DNA of 64,000 nt. Source: Saprospiraceae bacterium (GTDB taxonomy: Bacteria; Bacteroidota; Bacteroidia; Chitinophagales; Saprospiraceae). The translations under genes and the position numbers were made by a program. Below, one piece after another: positions 1,361-47,344 of the stretch. The DNA lies in the NCBI GenBank assembly GCA_016787525.1, contig JAEUUP010000027.1, forward strand, positions 3,058 through 67,057, in the 5' to 3' direction. The number at the start of each line of letters is the position of its first letter. Within the stretch, counting starts at the first letter, position 1. The notes below the pieces were generated by a model. The model worked only from the letters and a program-made list of their open reading frames with translations. It searched no databases and had not been told where the DNA came from.

Positions 1361-2830
1361 TTATTCTTTGAGAGCTTTACTCAATTCATCTTTATCGTCG
1401 AAAGGAAGCTTGACACCATTGATTTCTTGATATTTTTCATGACCTTTACCTGCCAAAAGTATAATATCTCCTTTCTGAGCCAATTTTACAGCAGTTCTAA
1501 TGGCTTGGCGGCGGTCAGCTATCTCAAGCACTTTACTCGCATCTTTTACAGCTATATCCACCTTCATTTGTTCGATGATACTGAGGGGGTCTTCCGAGCG
1601 AGGATTGTCGGAGGTCAGGATCAATGTATCACTCAATGTGACACCTATTTTACCCATGATACGCCTTTTGGCAGGGTCACGATCGCCCCCTGCGCCTGTC
1701 AGTGTGATAATTTTTTGAGTGCCTTTCCTAAAGTGTCGAATTGTCTCTAGTACATTTTCTAAAGCATCGGGCGTATGAGCATAATCTACAATACCAACAA
1801 TATCCCTTTGGATGTCATGAATGTAATCAAAACGGCCTTCTGCTCCTTTTAAATTAGACAAAATGGTCAGCACTTCTAGTTTGTCCGCACCCAATAAAAC
1901 TGCCGCAGAATAAACAGCTAAAAGATTATAAGCATTGAATTCGCCTATCATTCTGGCATAAAAATCATGCCCATCCATATCTAAATGCAATCCAAGTAAA
2001 CCATTTTCAATGATTTTCGCCTTAAAATCTGCTACTTTCCGCAGTGCATAGCTGTACTTTTGGGCTTTCGTATTCTGTAACATAAACCGTCCATTGCGAT
2101 CATCGTTATTGGTCAAAGCGAAAGCGTTTTTGGATAAACCATCAAAAAGTAATTTTTTGGCATCTCGATAGTTCTCAAAAGTTTTGTGGTAGTCCAAATG
2201 GTCATGAGTAATATTTGAAAAAATCGCTCCCGTAAACTGAATGCCTGAGACACGATTTTGTGCCAGTGCGTGGCTTGATACTTCCATAAATGCAAATTGG
2301 CACCCCTCAGTAACCATCTCACAAAACAACTGTTGCAAAGCAATTTGGTCAGGCGTAGTGTGTGTAGAAGGTAAAGTTCGACTTGCAACACGATATTCGA
2401 CCGTAGAAATCAAGCCGCATTTATAGCCTAAACCCGCAAACAAATCGTAAAGTAGAGTCGCAGTTGAGGTTTTGCCATTAGTCCCCGTCACGCCCACAAC
2501 TTTGAGGTTTTGAGTCGGATTGTCGTAAAAGTTTGCAGCTAAACTACCCAAAGCAGCCGAAGCATTTTCTACTTTTATAAATCTCGCAAGTGTATCAATA
2601 ACAGGAATCTCTTCACAAATAATAGCACTTGCACCGTTTTCAATGGCTTTTGAAATAAAATCATGTCCATCTACTTGAGTACCTCGCACAGCGACAAAAA
2701 GGCTATTCTGCACCACTTTGCGGCTATCAAAAGCAATTTTTGAGATATTGGTATCTGTATCACCATGACTATCGAGGATTTCTACCCCCCTCAGTATTTC
2801 TGATAATTTTTTCATTATTTTGATTGGCAT
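1361..2830 (-). CDS. murE: UDP-N-acetylmuramoyl-L-alanyl-D-glutamate--2,6-diaminopimelate ligase (MurE)
   Basis: 489 aa. Mur ligase P-loop VVGVTGTNGKTSTA, central and C-terminal Mur ligase domains, and position in the dcw cluster next to ftsI. Confidence 0.9.
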   Translation of the reverse strand: MPIKIMKKLSEILRGVEILDSHGDTDTNISKIAFDSRKVVQNSLFVAVRGTQVDGHDFISKAIENGASAIICEEIPVIDTLARFIKVENASAALGSLAANFYDNPTQNLKVVGVTGTNGKTSTATLLYDLFAGLGYKCGLISTVEYRVASRTLPSTHTTPDQIALQQLFCEMVTEGCQFAFMEVSSHALAQNRVSGIQFTGAIFSNITHDHLDYHKTFENYRDAKKLLFDGLSKNAFALTNNDDRNGRFMLQNTKAQKYSYALRKVADFKAKIIENGLLGLHLDMDGHDFYARMIGEFNAYNLLAVYSAAVLLGADKLEVLTILSNLKGAEGRFDYIHDIQRDIVGIVDYAHTPDALENVLETIRHFRKGTQKIITLTGAGGDRDPAKRRIMGKIGVTLSDTLILTSDNPRSEDPLSIIEQMKVDIAVKDASKVLEIADRRQAIRTAVKLAQKGDIILLAGKGHEKYQEINGVKLPFDDKDELSKALKE

Positions 2831-2916
2831 GTTTAAACACTATCATTGCAAGTTTTTGGTGGCTACAAAATCGTGTATATGACAAATCGTTACAGAAAGA
2901 ATTGTTTTTATATTGA

Positions 2917-2998
2917 ATTACTGTTTTAAAACTTAAAACGACAATTACTGACTGTTTTTCTGCTCCGAAGGAGTCCTTTGGACAAGCAGAAAAAAGCG
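2917..2998. repeat. Partial copy (left half) of a MITE/REP-like palindromic element, core TTTTTCTGCTCCGAAGGAGTCCTTTGGACAAGCAGAAAAAA
   Basis: Shares CTGTTTTAAAAC...ACTGTTTTTCTGCTCCGAAGGAGTCC(T)TTGGACAAGCAGAAAAAAGCG with the full element at 36851-37147 and the core at 15395-15440. It lies in the murE-ftsI intergenic space. Confidence 0.6.
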
Positions 2999-3068
2999 TA
3001 TAAAGAAGAAGTTTTATAGAGCGAATAATGTTGTCGCTATTACCTTACCACTGCATAATATCAGTGAA

Positions 3069-5195
3069 TTAATCTAATCTTATCGAAATAATATTGCCAG
3101 GATATGCTACACTACCTGGATTAAGAGACTGAGCAACTACTTTTCCATAACCACTGAACGACACACGAAGACCTCTATTTTCAAGTAAATAAAGGGCATC
3201 TTTCAAACCCATACCCACTACTGAGGGGACTTGTTTGAGATTACCGACGTTGCGGGTCATAACATTTAAAGTGTCACTTTTGGCACGTAGAACTGTCCAA
3301 TCCTCATTTTTTGAGGCTACTATTTCGTGCTTTAACTCTACATTTTGCAACATTTTGAGTAAATCACCTTTATAGCCTACGTCATCGGGCAATAAAGCAG
3401 GTGATGGTACGGGTTTACCTTTCTGGTTGATAGGGTCACTCAATGCTATATTAGAAGAAACTAACTTATCTGCAATTTCGCGAAAAACAGGAGCAGCGAC
3501 AGTTCCTCCATAATGTCCTGTTTTGGGTTTTGAAATGGCTATAATACACGAATAAACGGGATTTTCAGCAGGGAAATAACCTACGAATGAGCCTAAATAA
3601 CCTCCTGTATGTTTTTTACCTTTATCTTTTGAATAATTCAATTGTGCGGTCCCTGTTTTTCCAGCAAAGCGATACTGAGGGGTGCGTAGATGATAAGCTG
3701 TTCCTCCTGGTAGTTCTACGACTGACTCTAACAATTCTTTTGCTTGCGACAAAGCATCTTTTGACGCTATGCTTTTATTGATAATAGTCGGTTTAAATAG
3801 TTTCTGAGTTTCATTGAATCGGCGGATCTCGCTGACCAAATAAGGCTTCATCATCACCCCATCGTTTGCAACAGCATTGTAAAATGTCAATAACTGTAAA
3901 GGTGTGATTTCCAATTCATAACCCACACTCATCCAAGGCAAAGTAATACCACTCCATGTTGCATCATCCGCGTTTTTAATGTTTGGAGGTGTCTCTCCTT
4001 CAAGCTCAATGCCCGTCGGAATGGTTAGATTGAACTCTTGTAAGTGTTTGATAAATTTTTGGCGTTTATCATTAAAATAATTGTAAACCAGTTTTGAAAC
4101 GCCGACATTCGATGACGCTGAGAAGGCTTCTTTAACTGTCATAAGGTTTTTTTTAGCCCGTTCGTGGTCTTCCAAAACAACATCTGAGTATTGGTGTCTG
4201 CCGCCTTCTATATCCACAGTATCACTTAATCTGACTGCATTTTCTTCCAAAAGTGCCAGCATTGAAGCTAATTTAAATGTCGAACCTGGCTCTACTTTGA
4301 TGCCCACAGCATAATTATAGTCTTCCCACCAACCGTCTTTTGTTCGACTAACGTTAGAAATGGCTTTAATTTTACCTGTTTTCACCTCCATAACAATCGC
4401 TGTACCATGCTCGGCTTGGTAAGCATCGCAAGAACGAATCAGAGCTGTTTGGGTAATATCTTGAATATTTACATCGAGCGTTGTTACCAAGTCATTACCA
4501 TTTCGCGGTTCAATATCGGTCAGGTCTTGTAGCGGTATCCACACATCATTGCCCACGCGAATCATCGGTACATTTTCTTTCCCACCACTCAGTTCTTTGT
4601 CAAAACGCCCTTCTAACCCGATTTTTAAATCATCTTTTGTATAACCTAAAGTCCTAAGAGCCAGCATCTTAAAAGGATGTTCGCGACGATTGGTTCTGAC
4701 TGCTATAAACCCGTTTGAGCGACCTCCTCTGAAAACTGGAAAAGTTTTCAAAATACTCAATTCTTCAAAAGTAACATCTTTTTTTATGAGTTCATAACGA
4801 CTTTTGGCGTTGAAATGTGCCCACAGATAATTCCTCCATTCATCAATAGTTGTTTTTTCTGGTGTTAAATAAGTGGTCAAACTCCAAGCCAAGGAATCTA
4901 AACTTTTGACAAACTCCTCTTTGCTCAAACCATCTGCGCCAAAGTCCATACGAACTTCAAAAAAAGGGATAGAAGTAGCCAGCAGAGACCCATCTTCTGC
5001 CAAAATATTACCTCTTTCACCTGGAACTTCTCGGTTTTGAATATACCGTTTATCTGCTTCTTTGCGCCATCTATCCCCTTCTTTTGTGACCAGCACAAAC
5101 GCTTTAAAGAAGATAATGATAGCCACAAAAATGACGATACCTGTCACGATATAAACGCGTAATAAGACATTATCTCTTATATTTCCTATTGCCAT
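3069..5195 (-). CDS. ftsI: Peptidoglycan D,D-transpeptidase FtsI / penicillin-binding protein (class B PBP with C-terminal PASTA-like domain)
   Basis: 708 aa. N-terminal TM helix, PBP dimerisation domain, transpeptidase motifs (STFK-like 'GSTFKL', SxN, KTG 'KTGTA'), and dcw cluster context. Confidence 0.85.
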   Translation of the reverse strand: MAIGNIRDNVLLRVYIVTGIVIFVAIIIFFKAFVLVTKEGDRWRKEADKRYIQNREVPGERGNILAEDGSLLATSIPFFEVRMDFGADGLSKEEFVKSLDSLAWSLTTYLTPEKTTIDEWRNYLWAHFNAKSRYELIKKDVTFEELSILKTFPVFRGGRSNGFIAVRTNRREHPFKMLALRTLGYTKDDLKIGLEGRFDKELSGGKENVPMIRVGNDVWIPLQDLTDIEPRNGNDLVTTLDVNIQDITQTALIRSCDAYQAEHGTAIVMEVKTGKIKAISNVSRTKDGWWEDYNYAVGIKVEPGSTFKLASMLALLEENAVRLSDTVDIEGGRHQYSDVVLEDHERAKKNLMTVKEAFSASSNVGVSKLVYNYFNDKRQKFIKHLQEFNLTIPTGIELEGETPPNIKNADDATWSGITLPWMSVGYELEITPLQLLTFYNAVANDGVMMKPYLVSEIRRFNETQKLFKPTIINKSIASKDALSQAKELLESVVELPGGTAYHLRTPQYRFAGKTGTAQLNYSKDKGKKHTGGYLGSFVGYFPAENPVYSCIIAISKPKTGHYGGTVAAPVFREIADKLVSSNIALSDPINQKGKPVPSPALLPDDVGYKGDLLKMLQNVELKHEIVASKNEDWTVLRAKSDTLNVMTRNVGNLKQVPSVVGMGLKDALYLLENRGLRVSFSGYGKVVAQSLNPGSVAYPGNIISIRLD

Positions 5196-7301: not shown

Positions 7302-7765
7302 TTTTCATTCATTTTTCTGTCCGCTATTCGTCTCTCTTTTTCCTAAAAAAACTAGTTTGAATCGCTTATTGCTGTTTCATGGTTCAAAAGTAGTACCTTT
7401 TTTCCACATTCTCCCACTTTTTCCCACTTATTTTTCACAAAATATTTATCCACATTTCCACATTCTGAACAACATATTGACATCCAACATTTTACATGTA
7501 GGATATAAATTTTAATAGTGCAAAAATAATTTTCATTTTTTTTGACTGCTCCGAAGCATAGGAAGTGGTTATCTATCCAATCACCATTCCAATACTGAGG
7601 GGTATTTCTAAGTACTCAAAAACAGCAAAAAAAAAGGTAGTTTTCGCAAACTACCTCTAATAACCGAAGCCAATTAATAAGTTGGTGGTAAAATGTGGTT
7701 AATATGTATCATCTAGAACTTTAGATTAAACAAAAAAATATTGAAACCAATTAATCTATTTTTCA

Positions 7766-9616
7766 TCAGTCCTTAGTTGCTTTTAACACATGCTTCGTTA
7801 CCGAACGATTGTAAATATTGGTAAATGTCAACATATAGTTACCATCTTGAAATCTCGACAAATCTAATTTGATTTCCTTCACATCGGTCGAAATAGGCGT
7901 TTCATAAACCAATAATCCTTTACTGTTGAAGACGTGGAGTCGTTTATAACTATAAATAGACTCCCATTTCACACGAAAAATACCCGTTGAAGGATTAGGA
8001 AACACTCGAATGCCTTTTACTTCTGCATCAACCGAGCCACCGCTGTTGTCATCTTTTTTCTTAACAGTAACTGTCACTAAGTCACGCATAGAATAATATT
8101 TTGCTTGATTAGGATCCTTTATCAAGTAATCATCCTCCGACGAAAAGCGAAAAACATACGTTCCTGCTTCGCTACATTTTACTTTTGTTGCCCGTGATTT
8201 AGTATTTTCAAACGAAACATCGCCAACGCCTGACACTTTTTCCCATAAAACAGGTAGCGAGTCGTTGAGTACGCCATCCTTATACACCCGCCCCCTCAGT
8301 ATGACAGAGTCTAAAAGCACTTCTTTTTGGTCTTCACCTGCTTGAATATCGTATGTTTTTTTAAAAGAAAATGGGTTTTCAAATCCTGTCAGATGCTGAT
8401 GAAAAAAAGAATATCGTCCAAACCAGTACTCTTCGGGATAGTTATGCCCTATTTCTCGCAAATGCAACATTGTCGCTGCACCCAAGTATTGATTGTAGGC
8501 AGCAAAATGGGTAGCAGTAGGTGTCACATCGTCCTTATAACCCGTTTGAATCATCAAAGCCCCTTTGTAGCGTTTCAAAAAATAAACAGCATCGTGGTAT
8601 TTTGAGGCTATTTTCACTTTGTTCGTATCCATACCCAACGATGCACCTTGTATATTATAACGTGGAAAACCACTCGCTCGATGGTAGCGCGTACCTTGTT
8701 GCTCCGAGTTGGCTGGTGCTATGGCTAAAACAGCCTTCACCCGCTCATCCAAACCTGCCAAAGTGATAGATAAGCCACCACCCTGCGAATTACCACAAAG
8801 CCCCAAACTACCATTGAAATCGGGTCGAGATGCGACATAATCAATTGCCCTCAAACCACCTAAAACCATCCAACGGTTGTAAAACTTTGTTGGGTCAGTT
8901 AAATCATTAGGTTTGTAAGCATTTGAGTCTTCTTGGTTGGGAGGCGTGTTATGAACAGTCAGTTGGACGATTATTGACTTACATTTTTCAGCAAAATCGG
9001 TCACTACAAAGCCATCTGGTTCAAAAGGGACTGTACCAAAGGGAGGCAATTGGATAATCGCTGGAAACTTACCACTACCCGCAGGTATTGCTATATAACC
9101 ATTGACTGTCCGTCCGTCCACATTGTCTAATCGCAGGACATAGAGTTTTGAACCATTGGGCAATGTATTTTTTAAAGTGAGTTGTGGATTGATGGGAATC
9201 GCTTTGAGTTTTTCCTTTTCTTTTTTCCAAAAATCGTCAAAATCAGATGGCTCTGTTTCGATTGGCTGAATGTTATGTGGGTCGAATACGGCACTGACCC
9301 AAGCAACCTGTCCATTCTGTTCTGCCTTGAAAAAAATCGCTCCTGGATGAGGTAGATTGAACAGCACAACAGTGTCTGAGCGTCCTTGTTGAATCGTAAA
9401 ACTGCCTTTTTTAATCACTGAACTTTCGTCTCGAGGGTCATACCAAATAGAATAAGAGCCAGTTCCAAACACATTTGATGAAATACGAAATGCAGCCTTC
9501 TCACCTGCGGCATAAGTGGCTTTCACATTATCCATTGTGATTTTGACTTGACTTTTAAGGAAAAAGGGGGAAAACAATAGGTTGATGGCAACCAGAAATC
9601 GTTGGCAGTTCTTCAT
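7766..9616 (-). CDS. Secreted alpha/beta hydrolase (acetylxylan esterase / CE7-like, GNSQGG nucleophile motif) with C-terminal T9SS sorting domain
   Basis: 616 aa with a signal peptide. GNSQGGGLS matches GxSxG in AXE1-like context. The C-terminal ~80 aa (VFPNPSTGIF...YMLTFTN...) resembles a Por_Secre_tail. Confidence 0.5.
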   Translation of the reverse strand: MKNCQRFLVAINLLFSPFFLKSQVKITMDNVKATYAAGEKAAFRISSNVFGTGSYSIWYDPRDESSVIKKGSFTIQQGRSDTVVLFNLPHPGAIFFKAEQNGQVAWVSAVFDPHNIQPIETEPSDFDDFWKKEKEKLKAIPINPQLTLKNTLPNGSKLYVLRLDNVDGRTVNGYIAIPAGSGKFPAIIQLPPFGTVPFEPDGFVVTDFAEKCKSIIVQLTVHNTPPNQEDSNAYKPNDLTDPTKFYNRWMVLGGLRAIDYVASRPDFNGSLGLCGNSQGGGLSITLAGLDERVKAVLAIAPANSEQQGTRYHRASGFPRYNIQGASLGMDTNKVKIASKYHDAVYFLKRYKGALMIQTGYKDDVTPTATHFAAYNQYLGAATMLHLREIGHNYPEEYWFGRYSFFHQHLTGFENPFSFKKTYDIQAGEDQKEVLLDSVILRGRVYKDGVLNDSLPVLWEKVSGVGDVSFENTKSRATKVKCSEAGTYVFRFSSEDDYLIKDPNQAKYYSMRDLVTVTVKKKDDNSGGSVDAEVKGIRVFPNPSTGIFRVKWESIYSYKRLHVFNSKGLLVYETPISTDVKEIKLDLSRFQDGNYMLTFTNIYNRSVTKHVLKATKD

Positions 9617-13970: not shown

Positions 13971-14660
13971 TTAGACCGAAAATGCTGTCAAATATTTGTC
14001 AATATACACTTGTTTGGATTTTAGTTTGTACTGCATGATGAATCGAGGGTGTTCTAAAGCCACAATTTTTTTGAAAAAGCCCATTTTATCGTTTAATTTT
14101 TTCAAAAATTGCTCGTTTTTACCCGTTCCAAAACAAAAACAAATGTCTGTATGCACACCCATCGAAATTTGGGTTTCAATATTCCAAACCATAAAATCAT
14201 AGACAGCAGCAGTCAGTTCTCGACTGTCGTAGTAGTTGTAGTTCACCTCTTTTCCACCCTCTTTCAAGGCAGTAAACCCAAGCGGACAGACCGAATTGAT
14301 ATAAAAATGGCTGTAAAAAGCGGCAGCACCGCCATAAGCTGCAATCATGTCATAGACGTAAACCGAGGAAGGCTCGTAGGTATCCTTGCCTGTGTAGGGC
14401 AAGCCGCATTCATTTTTCAAACGATGCGAATCTGTGAATGGCACACCCGTCACACCTGCTCCAAAACGACCAGGATTGATGCCCAAAATCAGATGTCGAG
14501 GCTCATTGTCGTCATAGAATTTCTTATAAAAAGCAGAAGAAATGGTCAAAATATCAGGATTTTCCTTGAAAGGGTTCATAATTCTGATGCCTTCAGGCAA
14601 TGACCCTGTGAATGCTACACGCTCATTGAAAGCAATGATTTTATCTGCGAAAGTTGTCAT
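13971..14660 (-). CDS. Uracil-DNA glycosylase superfamily protein
   Basis: 229 aa. Motif A-like GINPGRFGAGVTGVPFTD and a C-terminal HP(R) motif B-like ...ALEHPRF... Confidence 0.45.
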   Translation of the reverse strand: MTTFADKIIAFNERVAFTGSLPEGIRIMNPFKENPDILTISSAFYKKFYDDNEPRHLILGINPGRFGAGVTGVPFTDSHRLKNECGLPYTGKDTYEPSSVYVYDMIAAYGGAAAFYSHFYINSVCPLGFTALKEGGKEVNYNYYDSRELTAAVYDFMVWNIETQISMGVHTDICFCFGTGKNEQFLKKLNDKMGFFKKIVALEHPRFIMQYKLKSKQVYIDKYLTAFSV

Positions 14661-15286: not shown

Positions 15287-15379
15287 ACTTGAATCTAAAG
15301 ATTTACGAATTGATAGTTTGTAAATTCTATAAAAAATAGATAAGCTCTGCTTGTCATAAGTAACGCGCTAAGAATAAAC

Positions 15380-15575
15380 GACACCATTACACACTGTTTT
15401 TTCGCTCCGAAGGAGTCCCTGTGGACAAGCGAAAAAAATGTGCTTTTAAAATATTTCTTTCGGATTGAAGCTAAAAATTGAGGCAAAAGCCTCAATTTTT
15501 AGCTTCAATCCATAAAAAAACTTTTTGCACGCCTTTAGTGCGTAGCACGAAACAGTGAGTGATGGTGTCGTTTGT
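15380..15575. mobile_element. MITE-like element with ~21-bp terminal inverted repeats containing the REP-like core and a 21-bp perfect hairpin
   Basis: Terminal IRs: CGACACCATTACACACTGTTT (15380) and its near-complement AAACAGTGAGTGATGGTGTCG (15555). Core CTGTTTTTTCGCTCCGAAGGAGTCCCTGTGGACAAGCGAAAAAAA at 15395-15440. Perfect palindrome GGATTGAAGCTAAAAATTGAGG-caaaag-CCTCAATTTTTAGCTTCAATCC at 15462-15511. Lies directly 3' of folA. Confidence 0.55.
15462..15511. terminator. Perfect 22-bp-stem hairpin; probable bidirectional terminator downstream of folA
   Basis: GGATTGAAGCTAAAAATTGAGG caaaag CCTCAATTTTTAGCTTCAATCC, followed by an A/T run. Confidence 0.5.
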
Positions 15576-15625
15576 TTTTTTTGTCGTTACTAAATCTTTG
15601 TACTTAGAATTTAAAAACATACGCT

Positions 15626-29188: not shown

Positions 29189-29453
29189 GTTTTTTGATGT
29201 TTGTTTTAGAATAAAAAAATTGAGTCAAGGACAAATTTACATTTAACAATGATATTTAAGCGTTTTTGGGTACAATAGTCACATTTTTTACACAATATAC
29301 ATTGATTGAAAAAGAGCTTTCTAAAAAGACATTGTCTTGGCGTATTTCCCTAATTATCACAGAACTTATACGGAATATGCCGTGTCTTGATGTTTACCCT
29401 CAGTAAAAGAGCCTTTGCGTGGATATTGGGGGTATTAGCATTAAAATGCTTCA

Positions 29454-29912
29454 TTTTGCAAGTTGCAACGCACTTTTGCAAGTTGCAACGGACTTTTGCA
29501 ACTTGCAAAGGACTTTTGCAAATTGCAACGCACTTTTGTAAGTTGCAAAGGACTTTTGCAAGCTGCAACGCACTTTTGCAAATTGCAACGCACTTTTGCA
29601 AGCTGCAAAACACTTTTGCAAATTGCAACGCACTTTTGTAAGTTGCAAAGGACTTTTGCAAGCTGCAAAGGACTTTTGCAAGTTGCAACGCACTTTTGCA
29701 AGTTGCAACGCACTTTTGCAAGTTGCAACGGACTTTTCCAAGTTGCAAAGGACTTTTGCAAGTTGCAAAGGACTTTTCCAAGCTGCAACGCACTTTTGCA
29801 AGCTGCAACGCACTTTTGCAGCTTGCAACGCACTTTTGCAAATTGCAACGCACTTTTGCAAGCTGCAAAACACTTTTGCAAATTGCAAAAACCTTTTGCA
29901 CGCTGCAAAAAC
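29454..29912. repeat. Tandem array of ~23 units of a 20-bp repeat TTGCAAGTTGCAACGCACTT (variants GCAAAGGACTT / GCAACGGACTT / TTGCAAGCTG / TTGCAAATTG)
   Basis: Directly visible periodicity. Each unit carries the palindromic hexamer TTGCAA twice (GTTGCAAC is also self-complementary). All six reading frames are open across the array, which is a non-coding hallmark. Confidence 0.9.
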
Positions 29913-30141
29913 CGCTATAAGTGGGTAAAATGACTAAATGACCTGCGGCAAACCCTTTGGGCATGAATATGAGTTCAATTAAATGCTATCGTTAAGCTAA
30001 AAACGGACGTGTCTGAAGGACTCTTTTGGAGAAATACAGAAATCAGAGACCCCTCAGTATTAGAGAAACCAAACTCCAAAATAGTCCTTTGGATAGTGTC
30101 GTTCGTTTGTGTCAGCGGGATAAGCACATTGTATAATTAAC

Positions 30142-34712: not shown

Positions 34713-34784
34713 AAAGATGGAGATACTGAGGGGGTAAAACAAAAAAGGCAGCTTGCAAATGAATGCAAACTGCCTTTTGTTGTG

Positions 34785-35173
34785 TGGAGCTGGAGGGCAT
34801 CGAACCCTCGTCCGGTCAAAGCATCAGAGAGCTTTCTACATGTTTAGTCGCCATATTTGTTTTTTCGAGCTGTGGGGAGGTTGGGCGACACACCCAGACC
34901 GCAGCCTTATCTCTTTGGATTTCGCCAACAGCCAGAGCGCTCTGTTAACTATTCTGATTAGGGATGATACGCCGCACGGCAGAAATCAGACAATCTGCGA
35001 AGACCACGTAGGTCGTGTGCTGAGCGCAAAGGCATTCTAACTCCTAGAATTAGGCTGCCATGGCATATTGATAGTTGCCAGCTGTAGTTTAAAGTACCGT
35101 TTTACGGGAGGTAACATCATAGCCCGACATGCTTACTAACCAATTCACTTTCCCGTCGAATCCAGTCAGCCCC
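34785..35173 (-). ncRNA. ssrA: tmRNA (SsrA), predicted tag approximately A-GNYQYAMAA
   Basis: Reverse complement starts GGGGCTGACTGGATTCGACGGG and ends GGACGAGGGTTCGATGCCCTCCAGCTCCA, which are the canonical tmRNA 5' end and tRNA-like 3' end. The internal reading frame GCT GGC AAC TAT CAA TAT GCC ATG GCA GCC TAA follows an in-frame stop. Confidence 0.85.
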
Positions 35174-35416: not shown

Positions 35417-36850
35417 ATGAATCAAAAAGCAATTTGGGTTATCATTGGGTTAATGTCGTTGGCGGTTATCGGGGTACTGTCATTGCAGATGAGTTTTATC
35501 AACAACAGCCGTCGGTTGAACGAAGAACAGTTCGATAAACACATCTCTGCCAGTATGCGAACAGTTGCCAAACGGCTTGAAAATGTGGAGAACATCCAAG
35601 TTACGAACTTTGCTAATGGCTTCTCCATCAAGCACTTAGAGGTAGATACATCCAATGGTAGTTTTCGCTATCAACAACGAACTATGATGTCGAATGACCC
35701 CTCAGTATTGCGCCAAACGATGGATGCCGTTCAGTTGAAACAAGAAATGTTCAATACTCCCATCGAAGAGCGCATTGATGTGGTGCAACTCGACCATTTT
35801 TTGAAAGAAGAATTGGGCAGTGATATTCCATTCAGCTACGGTGTCTGGTCGAATGGTGACAACTGTTTTGTCATTTTCAATAACCAATATATCGTTCCGA
35901 CTCAAAATCAAGTTGACTACCGCTATTTGAAATCCTCGGAATACAAAACCAATCTGTTTCCCACTGATATCAATAACCCTGGTACGTTACATGTTTTTTT
36001 TCCTACCAAATCCGCCGTTGTTTGGGGGCGTTTGTGGCTCGATTTGCTGATGTCTCTTTTGTTTGCTGCCATCATTTTGGGTTCTTTTGCCTACACGATT
36101 AATGTCATTTTGCAACAGAAAAAGTTATCTGAAATGAAAAATGACTTTATCAACAATATGACACACGAGTTCAAAACGCCGATTGCAACTATTTCCTTAG
36201 CTTCTGACTCCATCACCAACCCCTCAGTCATCAACAATCCTGACAAAGTCAAACGTTTTGCCGACATCATTCGCCAAGAAAATAAACGAATGCACGGTCA
36301 GGTCGAAAAAGTGTTGCAAATGGCACTGGTAGAACGAGGTAAAATTAAGTTGAACTTCACAGAGGTTAATTTACATCAAGTTATCGAGCAAGCTGTCGGC
36401 AATATGAGCCTACAAGTTGAACGCAAAGATGGCACTGTTGCAGCCGAACTTCGAGCAGACAAACATTATATTGAAGGTGATTTAAATCATATTTCAAATG
36501 TGATCAACAATCTTTTGGACAACGCTAATAAATATTCGCCCGAAAAACCAGAGATAATCGTCTCTACCCGCAATGTTGCCAATGGTATCGAGGTCACCGT
36601 GTCGGATAAAGGCATTGGTATGTCGAAAGAAGCGAAAAAGCGTATTTTCGAGAAGTTTTACCGTGTCCATACAGGCAATTTGCACGATGTCAAAGGTTTT
36701 GGTTTGGGTTTGGCTTACGTCAAAGCGATGGTGACAGCGCACAAAGGTTCAATTGATGTCAAATCGGAATTGGGTAAAGGTTCAAGTTTTATCCTACTTT
36801 TCCCTTTCAAAGTTGGTCAAGACTCCGTTGAACATGAGGAAGAGGGCTGA
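35417..36850 (+). CDS. Sensor histidine kinase (two TM, HisKA + HATPase_c)
   Basis: H-box MTHEFKTPIATI, N-box NLLDNANKYS, G-boxes DKGIGM and GFGLGL. Confidence 0.75.
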   Translation: MNQKAIWVIIGLMSLAVIGVLSLQMSFINNSRRLNEEQFDKHISASMRTVAKRLENVENIQVTNFANGFSIKHLEVDTSNGSFRYQQRTMMSNDPSVLRQTMDAVQLKQEMFNTPIEERIDVVQLDHFLKEELGSDIPFSYGVWSNGDNCFVIFNNQYIVPTQNQVDYRYLKSSEYKTNLFPTDINNPGTLHVFFPTKSAVVWGRLWLDLLMSLLFAAIILGSFAYTINVILQQKKLSEMKNDFINNMTHEFKTPIATISLASDSITNPSVINNPDKVKRFADIIRQENKRMHGQVEKVLQMALVERGKIKLNFTEVNLHQVIEQAVGNMSLQVERKDGTVAAELRADKHYIEGDLNHISNVINNLLDNANKYSPEKPEIIVSTRNVANGIEVTVSDKGIGMSKEAKKRIFEKFYRVHTGNLHDVKGFGLGLAYVKAMVTAHKGSIDVKSELGKGSSFILLFPFKVGQDSVEHEEEG

Positions 36851-37147
36851 AGAAAAAGCTCCCTCAGAAGCTGTTTTAAAACCTATAAACACTATTTTTG
36901 ACTGTTTTTCTGCTCCGAAGGAGTCCCTTTGGACAAGCAGAAAAAAGCGTGCTTTGTTATATTTCCTTCGGAGCGAAGCTATTTTTTGATGTTTTTCGCA
37001 AGCGAAAAACATCAAAAAATAGCTTCGCTCCATAAAAGACCATTCTTGTACGCTTTTTTTCGCTTGTCCAAAGGACTCCTTCGGAGCGAAAAAACAGTGC
37101 GTGATTGTTCGATTAGGTTTTAAAATAGCTTCTGAGGGAGCTTTTTC
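36851..37147. mobile_element. ~300-bp nested-palindrome MITE-like element (full copy)
   Basis: Outer 32-bp IRs GAAAAAGCTCCCTCAGAAGCTGTTTTAAAACC (36851) and GGTTTTAAAATAGCTTCTGAGGGAGCTTTTTCC (37115). Inside is the REP-like core forward (36901-36950) and reverse (37051-37099), flanking a perfect 31-bp-arm central hairpin (CGGAGCGAAGCTATTTTTTGATGTTTTTCGC | GCGAAAAACATCAAAAAATAGCTTCGCTCCG). The element begins at the histidine kinase stop codon. Confidence 0.6.
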
Positions 37148-37290
37148 CATATTTCATAACTCATATTTGATTTATACCACCCCCTCAGTATTTTGCCCGT
37201 TTTAAAAGATAAAATGGGCGAACACCTGTATTTTATCGTATTTTTGCCCTTTCAAAAACTTATTTACATGACATCAATTTCACAACACTC

Positions 37291-39558: not shown

Positions 39559-39611
39559 CCTCTCAGTAAAAAAGCCTTTGCGATGTTGCGAAGGCTTTTT
39601 TACTGAGGGGT
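39559..39611. terminator. Hairpin flanked by inverted motif copies (CTCAGTAAAAAAGCCTTTGCGATGTTGCGAAGGCTTTTTTACTGAGGGGT)
   Basis: Near-perfect palindrome with an A/T stretch, 20 nt after the stop of the + strand gene. Confidence 0.5.
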
Positions 39612-47233: not shown

Positions 47234-47344
47234 ACTGAGGTTTGGGAGCGTTCTACTGAGGGGGTGATAAGTTCTACTGAGGTTTGAGAGCGTTCTACTG
47301 AGGGGGTGATTTGAAATCACCCCCTCAGTAGAACCATTTTCGAG
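47234..47344. repeat. Cluster of five TACTGAGG-family motif copies: two 40-bp direct repeats plus a 19-bp-stem perfect hairpin
   Basis: GTTCTACTGAGGTTTGrGAGCGTTCTACTGAGGGGGTGAT repeated twice, then GTTCTACTGAGGGGGTGAT-ttgaa-ATCACCCCCTCAGTAGAAC. Lies immediately 3' of folD. Confidence 0.85.

Follow-up and report, generated by a model that had tools for sequence, protein, structure and literature searches.

The 64-kb stretch of Saprospiraceae DNA analyzed here (referred to as the window) contains, at positions 36851-37147, a 297-nt nested palindrome (copy 1) that is situated next to the stop codon of a histidine-kinase gene and has two further relatives in the window. Taken jointly, it is highly probable that these copies represent a family of palindromic repeats that is polymorphic among related genomes, and that a 20-nt unit, the core, inserts into the loops of hairpins between TTG and A (TTG^A). 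The core, TCCAAAGGAC+TCCTTCGGAG, forms two mini-hairpins of 4 bp each. In a first-pass annotation, made from the letters of the window, the palindrome had been regarded as similar to a transposable element of the miniature inverted-repeat kind (MITE), with a core like that of the repetitive extragenic palindromes (REPs). The structure of the element, its presence and absence in relatives, the behavior of the core and a candidate mobilizing enzyme are described below, together with the rival explanations.

Copy 1 is composed of two half-units placed head to head. The nested palindrome of about 297 bp that had been proposed was recovered with a repeat finder, which resolved four nested inverted pairs. 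The outer pair consists of module A (36852-36885, plus strand) and module A' (37114-37147, minus strand), which pairs with it; these arms are 34 nt long, rather than 32 nt as first stated, and 97% complementary. The left outer repeat includes a small hairpin, AGCTCCCTCAGAAGCT, and the family motif CTGTTTTAAAACCTA, which is common to copy 2 and to a related element in the contig L133 (see below). The core-bearing arms (36901-36950 and 37050-37098) form two overlapping pairs with 90-92% complementarity. The perfect central hairpin, module C (36970-37031), begins with GGAGCGAAGC and has arms of 30 nt (36970-36999 and 37002-37031, 100% complementary), not 31 nt. The left B hairpin (36905-36945, minus strand) has the stem TTTTTCTG/CAGAAAAA and the minus-strand loop CTTG, with the double mini-hairpin inserted after TTG; this core insert (36913-36933, minus strand TCCAAAGGGACTCCTTCGGAG) contains one extra G and is thus 21 nt long. 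The right B hairpin (37055-37094, plus strand) has the stem TTTTTTCG/CGAAAAAA, whose differences from the left arm compensate each other, and again a CTTG loop with the core after TTG (37067-37086, plus strand, TCCAAAGGACTCCTTCGGAG, 20 nt). Compared half against half, copy 1 is 79% complementary across 296-300 nt. The RNA fold of 36845-37155 reaches -184 kcal/mol, compared with -70 ± 5.6 in shuffles (z = -20.5). When folded as DNA, the left B hairpin reaches -13 kcal/mol (z -3.65) and the central hairpin -33.9 kcal/mol (z -12.9). The three open reading frames (ORFs) across the palindrome have no Pfam match, in agreement with their earlier interpretation as artefacts. The element had been said to begin at the kinase stop codon; the two are indeed adjacent, with the onset 1 base past the TGA (36848-36850) of the PhoR-like kinase gene. 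On the other side copy 1 is flanked by the remnant of a heptamer array.

An alignment of both halves of copy 1, copy 2 and both halves of copy 3 (alignment A1) defined a half-unit that measures about 150 nt and is divided in four, namely the outer arm A (GAAAAAGCTCCCTCAGAAGCT + GTTTTAAAACCTA), a linker whose last bases are CACTG, the core-carrying hairpin B, and the left half of hairpin C, again starting with GGAGCGAAGC. The hairpin modules are conserved between arms, the linkers are not. The two variants of the B stem, CTG/CAG and TCG/CGA, are each compensated within their own stem (TTTTTCTG/CAGAAAAA vs TTTTTTCG/CGAAAAAA). Each core unit in the window is placed after TTG in the CTTG loop of a B hairpin, and no 'empty' B hairpin was found elsewhere within the 64 kb. 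The sequence CTCCNNNGGAG occurs four times in the window, with 0.17 occurrences expected.

A local BLAST search of the window yielded two further loci, 2921-3025 and 15375-15536. Gene identities were confirmed for MurE, a class B penicillin-binding protein (FtsI-type), RsmH, MraZ and dihydrofolate reductase. Copy 2 (2917-3045, plus strand) is a single half-unit with a partial A, the linker, B plus core, and a degenerate left half of C; its core insert (2963-2982, minus strand) is located within the B hairpin 2955-2994. The stretch 2921-3025 shows 80-98% identity to parts of copy 1, and the alignment extends copy 2 to approximately 2917-3045, so that the related copy claimed between murE and ftsI at 2917-2998 was found and is longer. 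Copy 3 (15370-15579) is a palindromic member made of two half-units, with its own outer arms and a central hairpin (15448-15525) that is homologous to those of copy 1 and of the L133 element. It carries the core in the left arm only: a variant with the loop ACAG (15405-15425, minus strand) within the B hairpin 15397-15437, stem TTTTTTCG/CGAAAAAA; the B position of the right arm is without core. A copy with inverted repeats of its own had been correctly placed after folA, but its arms measure 30 nt (87% complementary) and not 21 nt. Upstream of mraZ, where a core fragment had been noted at about 7550, the sequence TTTTTGACTG+CTCCGAAG is present at 7539-7556 (plus strand). It fits copy 1 once 8 nt are deleted and was not recovered by BLAST at E<1; it may plausibly, if weakly, be taken as a relic of a family member, possibly of a left B edge.

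Orthologous sites of the first two copies were compared in relatives, and the element was absent at both sites examined. The kinase of relative L130 is 83% identical to that of the window and is followed by the same 357-aa gene (an exact look-up of the window's 357-aa protein returned no record), at a distance of 196 nt in L130 vs 441 nt in the window. Past the kinase stop L130 reads atgccgta(TATTTCA)x11 tatttgatttctaccaccccctcag, and copy 1 is absent; homology between L130 and the window ends by 36822, shortly before the kinase gene is complete, and restarts at 37145, with the 297-bp element wholly in the gap. The empty site of L130 (5428-5500) thus holds about 11 tandem TATTTCA heptamers, and degenerate heptamer remnants (TATTTCA TAACTCA TATTTGA) are found in the window directly past the element, at 37149-37172; for comparison, heptamer repeats were treated by MacGregor 2015 (PMC4679880).

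Regarding copy 2, the ftsI-murE junction in L131, L133 and L134 (MurE 83-84% identical) is TAA-AAA-ATG, i.e., 3 nt, vs a spacer of 253 nt in the window (2816-3068, minus strand) between the ftsI stop (3069-3071) and the likely murE ATG (2815-2813, MKKLSEILRG). The true start of murE is probably at 2815 and not at the ATG of the longest ORF, 2830, because the window ATG aligns with the start in the relatives (MKKLSEILRG vs MKNLTQILRG). With such a junction for comparison, the remark that an insertion is unusual in the packed operon of the division and cell wall (dcw) cluster was well founded. A homologous nested palindrome of 326 bp is present in L133 and L134 at another locus, 14021-14346 (alignment A2). 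Its arms of 40 nt are 98% complementary and contain CTGTTTTAAAACCTA; its central hairpin starts with GGAGCGAGCC and has GGAGCGA in common with the window family; its B-like hairpins, one of which is TTTTTTC-TGAA-GGAAAAA, are without core. L131 and L135 have no such element at the corresponding site. Given the empty orthologous sites and this absence, the palindrome family comes and goes over the time in which species diverge, and the core is a secondary addition to it. The view that the family is non-coding and not an ancient fixed structure is thereby upheld.

The core was searched for with a 21-nt pattern in metagenome contigs, at least 120 of which matched. A 26-nt pattern matched 3 loci only, since window-specific closing bases were also required; these were from 3 GTDB genomes of different lineages and had differing flanks. 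Among the matches listed, 104 of 127 core copies are located outside ORFs of at least 120 codons, the copies occur in both orientations relative to neighboring genes, and the flanking bases are T (60%) and T (75%) before and A (68%) after the unit. Filled and empty sites differ by exactly one unit in the comparisons available within L022, between near-identical strains, and in tandem arrays. One copy of a 280-nt repeat in L022 is filled (2986-3040, AAACGGTT[G TCCAAAGGACTCCTTCGGAG A]AACCGTT, or, written with flanks, AAACGGTT[core]AAACCGTT), and the other copy is empty (3755-3773, AAACGGTTGAAACCGTT). At one locus L137 reads AACCAATGGCTTC[CCCGAAAGGGTCCTATGGAC]AGCC and the near-identical strains L138-140 read AACCAATGGCTTCAGCC; on the opposite strand this 20-nt variant unit is CTG^[TCCATAGGACCCTTTCGGGG]^AAG. 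An adjacent hairpin also differs between L137 and L138-140, by a 22-nt hairpin insert. The core interrupts tandem arrays of 7-8-nt period in L096, L026, L109, L046 and L037, and the heptamer phase is restored only by the removal of exactly 20 nt (0.72 vs at most 0.36; 15-25 nt tried). In L042 the core occupies the anticodon loop of a partial tRNA-Ser pseudo-copy, with an intact tRNA-Ser without core 300 nt away, and in L025 one unit is located within loop 2 of another, again after TTG.

The variant units have compensatory 4-bp stems (GTCC/GGAC, TCCC/GGGA, TGCC/GGCA, GCCC/GGGC, CCCT/GGGG), with the first loop A-rich and the second T-rich throughout. A two-hairpin model accounts for 8 of 8 pairs in 15 of the 16 variants, a single long hairpin for 6-9 of 10 (pairs were counted by script; MAFFT mis-registered structural variants). 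An RNA motif with a three-way junction and a covarying closing stem was considered for the core and rejected, as the filled/empty pairs show insertion; a closing stem of at least 5 bp was present in 27% of the core copies listed vs 17% of controls. In sum, the comparisons show an independent module of 20 nt whose insertion, both into the loops of hairpins and into arrays of heptamers, is precise and falls at TTG^A, and insertion of hairpins into hairpin loops explains the nested architecture. The 'REP-like core' of the first-pass annotation is present in both orientations as described, and is better understood as an independent Bacteroidota module of 20 nt than as merely the middle of a palindrome.

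Further structures were observed at or near such sites. Heptamer arrays with TGAA or TGAT are landing sites of the core in other contigs. A hairpin (G)ATCCTGAAACAAGTTCAGGAT(GAC) recurs in many contigs, among them L011 (6270-6345) and, in the core flanks, L007, L010, L079 and L087; it is found both empty and filled, with the 20-nt unit after CCTG or, in L011, with a longer double hairpin, and looks like another widespread host for loop insertions. Between the intact tRNA-Ser(GGA) of L042 and two partial 5' copies of it (7850-8350) there is a small GIY-YIG-like ORF.

The housekeeping proteins of core contigs fall into 90%-identity clusters with Mucilaginibacter, Pedobacter, Sphingobacterium and Pelobium. 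The core is thus found in at least three Bacteroidota orders, represented by this Sphingobacteriaceae set, Cyclobacteriaceae (L002) and the Saprospiraceae window. Further core loci (L005, L022, L062, others) are probably from Ignavibacteriota; they have in common AAACCGTT[core]AAACGGTT, TTAACCCACGACTTAAGTCGTGGGTTAA and AAACCGTTTTAACGGTTT, and a protein of the Y1 transposase type encoded near these Ignavibacteriota-like loci has relatives named Ignavibacteriae and Melioribacteraceae. No match to the core was obtained in viral contigs, just three weak partial matches (20-24 nt, E 0.3-0.9, no matching context) in plasmids, and no core unit in roughly 100 kb of sequence belonging to the window's close relatives. 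Judged from these matches, the distribution is wide yet patchy. In the literature, the literal sequences of the core and of adjacent hairpins matched chance primers only, and no description of the 20-nt unit or of the hairpin arrays treated below was found in the searchable literature.

Alternatively, the element could be an inherited cis-acting RNA under selection, i.e., a bidirectional terminator or an mRNA-stabilizing 3' hairpin, with the core as an RNA motif bound by a protein or RNase. The extremely stable RNA fold, the A5...T5 frame of copy 1 and the conservation of the core across orders with compensatory stems are in its favor, as is the location of the core near gene 3' ends (among the matches listed, within 60 nt of 27 of 94 neighbors showing their 3' end vs 6 of 65 showing their 5' end). 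The outer hairpins of copy 1 also fit the terminator consensus when read outward (3 sites vs 0.7 expected), and to that extent the earlier proposal of a bidirectional terminator may apply. It does not extend to copies 2 and 3, in which no terminator-like site was found, and the B hairpins have a T-run before and an A-run after them, the inverse of the terminator order; moreover, copy 2 is located within the ftsI-murE operon, where termination would be harmful. For these reasons effects on the transcript are regarded as by-products and not as the raison d'être of the element. The absence of the element at orthologous sites of close relatives, the polymorphism of the unit among near-identical strains, its occurrence in a tRNA pseudogene loop and in heptamer arrays, and its insertion in either orientation relative to neighboring genes argue against selected RNA as well. 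Rfam 15 provided no match to the palindrome: with gathering and permissive thresholds, solely generic long-hairpin (microRNA precursor) models were returned, far sub-threshold. Such an RNA is therefore considered an unlikely explanation.

A classical MITE, i.e., an internally deleted insertion sequence (IS) of the DDE type that is bounded by terminal inverted repeats and transposes by cut-and-paste, leaving a fixed target-site duplication, is likewise rather improbable. The size of about 300 bp, the non-coding and intergenic nature, the three loci in 64 kb, the terminal inverted repeats (copy 1, 34 nt, 97%; copy 3, 30 nt, 87%; L133 element, 40 nt, 98%) and the presence/absence pattern (L130, L131, L133 and L134 empty; L133 element absent from L131 and L135) would all suit such an element. 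The check for target-site duplications that had been recommended revealed no consistent one across the window copies and the L133 element. A possible CTAA is found on either side of the L133 element and of copy 3 only, whereas copy 1 (flanks GCTGAA / CATATT) and copy 2 show no duplication. In addition, the palindrome extends over the whole length, the internal hairpins are conserved and the linkers are not, copy 2 is a half-unit with one end only, and neither an IS with matching ends nor a transposase came to light in the window, which was scanned for Y1/RAYT-type motifs but not systematically for other transposase families, or across some 135 kb of the relatives' loci. The term 'MITE-like' does not apply in the strict sense. 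Bacterial MITEs, such as the Correia elements of Neisseria and a MITE of P. gingivalis (PMC4596501), are also small, non-coding, intergenic and strain-polymorphic with terminal inverted repeats; the window element differs from them in its whole-length palindrome, its half-units, and the lack of a consistent duplication or visible parent IS. In its behavior the large element is closer to the palindromic mosaics REPIN, BIME and ERIC than to a DDE-type MITE.

Little credence is also given to an enzyme-free origin, in which the palindromes would result from template switching during replication, or from fold-back synthesis with slippage at hairpins, and would be spread by gene conversion. Perfect central hairpins beside diverged linkers are compatible with it, as are the reticulate traits among the four B modules (stem variant vs extra C), the hairpin arrays with copy-number variation of a 137-nt unit, and the heptamer slippage arrays at the same sites. 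The identical 20-mer, however, occurs in unrelated contexts in different bacterial orders, with exact junctions and a preference for TTG^A flanks, and local template switching has no template for the unit.

It is very improbable that the core is a binding site in duplex DNA for a conserved regulator or nucleoid protein, in the form of two TCC-N3-GGA palindromes 10 bp apart: the half-site pairs are indeed one helical turn apart and the copies intergenic, but the stems co-vary (TGCC/GGCA, TCCC/GGGA, GCCC/GGGC) while the loops are conserved, which is the signature of a folded strand, the unit is patchily distributed (without a copy in about 100 kb from close relatives) and shows insertion polymorphism, and the bias is to gene 3' ends and not to promoters.

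An assembly artefact, namely a fold-back chimera in a metagenome-assembled genome (MAG), can be dismissed almost completely, although copy 1 is known from one assembly only and palindromes are known to cause assembly errors, because the arms reach no more than 79% complementarity and their linkers are unrelated, copy 2 recurs in a separate assembly, and the related element of L133 is also found in L134, the two being independent assemblies. The assembly that reproduces copy 2 is the GTDB contig L001 (JAYRXP010000275.1, 1.7 kb), which is 99.4% identical to the window and binned in a 'Paludibacter sp.' MAG. L001 is probably mis-binned, because the histidine kinase and MurE of the window are 100% identical to proteins of a Saprospiraceae bacterium MAG, encoded on a 67-kb contig; remoter homologues carry the names Saprospiraceae, Lewinellaceae and Flavilitoribacter.

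A polymorphic palindrome family with loop-inserted units, the reading preferred here, has parallels among known repeats. The ERIC/IRU and YPAL elements of enterobacteria are imperfect palindromes, 100-300 bp in length, that lie in intergenic regions which are transcribed, also within operons; they have size variants due to internal insertion at fixed positions, differ in presence and absence among related species, and have no transposase. The window element differs from them in sequence and host lineage and in being composed of separable hairpins, one of which is a 20-nt unit with a distribution of its own. Similarities to the REP, BIME and REPIN families (Bertels & Rainey 2011, PMC3116915; Di Nocera et al. 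2013, PMC3733652) include palindromic units of 20-40 nt, mainly intergenic and without coding capacity, that occur singly, as inverted doublets forming long hairpins, or in mosaics with other motifs; REPs within other palindromes are also on record (Di Nocera et al. 2013, PMC3733652). When the core is tested as a REP-type sequence, the inverted pair of B modules in copy 1 and the hairpin-forming 20-nt unit fit. In contrast to REPs, the core has no GTAG/GTGG or CGTC tag, is framed G...G with the flanks TT and A, and consists of a pair of 4-bp mini-hairpins with 20 nt in total; whereas REP families are specific to species or genera, the core sequence is common to orders and probably phyla.

The closest precedent for the 20-nt unit are the small dispersed repeats SDR4/5/6 of Nostocaceae, which have 21-27 nt, are apparently mobile and are patchily distributed. 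Elhai et al. 2008 are said to have described SDR units as forming hairpins and nesting in each other, without a known enzyme. The core differs from them in phylum and apparently in sequence, and it targets TTG^A, be it in the loop of a hairpin or in a heptamer array. SDR5 is cited as inserting precisely between the third and fourth bases of HIP1 (PMC4390886), and SDRs were reported in Nostocaceae only (PMC5861425). IS200/IS605 elements and their palindrome-associated derivatives (PATEs) are comparable in their single-strand 'peel and paste' transposition without target-site duplication, their insertion 3' of a short sequence, the use of hairpins as recognition elements, and hairpin loops as targets; IS1397, for example, is cited as targeting REP loops (reference 41 in PMC3116915). 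They differ in that their subterminal hairpins and guide/cleavage sequences extend over tens of bases, compared with just 20 nt in the core unit, which is known from sequence.

A candidate for the mobilizing enzyme emerged from clustering of the ORFs within 3 kb of the core unit. A recurrent small protein in L011, L022, L062 and L084/L106 matched Pfam Y1_Tnp (PF01797, E 1e-20 to 1e-24) and carries the motif Y-x3-Q-x2-HH, the signature of subclass 1.2 of the Y1 HUH proteins (Quentin et al. 2018, PMC6006769). Members of this subclass are low-copy, without IS200 ends and without REPs, and are confined to Cyanobacteria and Bacteroidetes (Quentin et al. 2018, PMC6006769). Among the matches listed, such genes are located 270-950 nt from the core at 4 independent loci of about 110 selected by the core, whereas an estimated 0.3 or fewer would be expected by chance in 700 kb. 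Five further Y1 loci were selected by protein identity, independent of the core; at all five the gene occupies one fixed chromosomal position and has, to its left and right, arrays of hairpin modules with TGAA or TTCA in their loops. This putatively single-copy, vertically inherited Y1 gene amid hairpin arrays of its own is reminiscent of RAYTs (tyrosine transposases associated with REPs) and their REPs; the two differ in that RAYTs belong to the subclasses 2.x and the core-adjacent Y1 proteins to subclass 1.2, for which no REPs are on record (Quentin et al. 2018, PMC6006769), and in that the window lacks such a Y1 gene (six-frame motif scan). The association between core and Y1 gene is suggestive and could be indirect.

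Some observations in this context concern the arrays and RAYTs more generally. The arrays flanking Y1 genes vary among samples, with a composite unit of 137 nt present once or twice (L142-L150, about 330 nt upstream of the Y1 gene). In the flanks of L137-L140 the loop of CCAACGGATAAATCCGTTGG may or may not contain a 22-nt hairpin, CCTGCCTGCCGGCAAAGGCAGG. A scan for the RAYT-type motif (HUH...YIxxNP) in the window and the loci yielded nothing real, and the REPs listed for RAYT subclass 2.6 of Bacteroidetes (Quentin et al. 2018, PMC6006769), considered as relatives of the core, were rejected as they bear no resemblance to it.

The following explanation is proposed. The family would consist of lineage-specific, non-coding intergenic palindromes built from the hairpin modules A, B and C with unconserved linkers between them. 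The full element downstream of the kinase and the half-unit between ftsI and murE would have been gained after the split from the relatives with about 83% protein identity. The 20-nt unit would insert precisely at TTG^A where a hairpin loop is single-stranded, which in the window is the CTTG loop of the B hairpins, and both units and hairpin modules would move as single-stranded DNA without target duplication. The mobilizer may be an IS200-like Y1 HUH protein of subclass 1.2 that is encoded by a single-copy gene of the host and works in trans, in the manner presumed for RAYTs and REPs. On the transcript, a giant hairpin in the 3' untranslated region of the kinase gene and a structured spacer in the dcw operon would result as by-products. 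As a whole, with the gained palindrome family, the loop-inserting unit and Y1 mobilization, this explanation is held with moderate confidence; the enzymatic mechanism, taken separately, is a tentative suggestion that we regard with some doubt. It is a speculative extension that such 20-nt double mini-hairpins and their compensatory variants might be among the smallest site-specific mobile DNAs, inserted as single strands at TTG^A into hairpin loops or arrays of heptamers and mobilized by the 'orphan' single-copy subclass 1.2 Y1 proteins of Bacteroidota, Ignavibacteriota and Cyanobacteria, with loop-into-loop nesting as a general process and a link to the SDRs of Nostoc.

Several points weigh against the proposed explanation. 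The double mini-hairpin is present in only 1 of the 5 independent Y1 loci, and the co-occurrence of core and Y1 gene could reflect the mere abundance of suitable loops near Y1 genes. A search for a cognate transposase, as suggested in the first-pass annotation, revealed no Y1 or RAYT gene in the 64-kb window by six-frame motif scan, in which other transposase families were not systematically covered. A unit of 20 nt would leave almost no space for guide and cleavage sequences of the IS200/IS605 or REP type. The covariation is partly due to the search design, in which the core sequence was fixed and several variants were obtained with a perfect-stem pattern. The possible CTAA duplications at the L133 element and copy 3 make transposition with target-site duplication conceivable, the ends of the large element are fuzzy, and three loci in the 64-kb window stand against none in about 100 kb of relatives.

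Other features of the window and its relatives are as follows. The 10-mer CCCCTCAGTA (reverse complement TACTGAGGGG) has 93 occurrences with at most 1 mismatch, compared with about 1 expected in the window. It occurs on both strands at a density of approximately 1 per 700 bp, both within and between genes and at times as inverted pairs (e.g., 37181-37190, 47254-47330, 39559-39610 and 2787-2796), and in its abundance resembles an uptake signal or a hyper-abundant word of the HIP1 type. The outer repeat sequence CCCTCAGAAG of copy 1 and this motif have 7 bases in common and no more. At 29455-29910 a sequence with a period of 20 nt (TTGCAAGYTGCAAMGSACTT...) is repeated in tandem over about 450 bp; the array is internally palindromic and overlaps ORFs on both strands at 29350-29964. 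A LAGLIDADG homing-endonuclease ORF is present in relatives (L124-L126, 2761-3165; L130, 2659-3063) just past the region aligning with the tmRNA gene of the window (34782-35173, minus strand), where the window has a lipoprotein-like ORF instead.

Bacterial genomes commonly contain short palindromic repeats, but the build-up and spread of these repeats are known for very few lineages and for essentially none in Bacteroidota. The present family contributes a rule that can be tested, namely a 20-nt unit with the target TTG^A and hairpin loops as landing sites, without duplication. For annotation, the repeats account for spurious ORFs and for contig breaks in Bacteroidota MAGs. The element that splits the normally 3-nt junction of ftsI and murE raises the question of how expression of the cell-division operon is maintained. 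Loop insertion would explain the growth of nested palindromes, and the association with Y1 genes, if true, would provide a candidate function for a subclass of Y1 HUH proteins that is currently without one.

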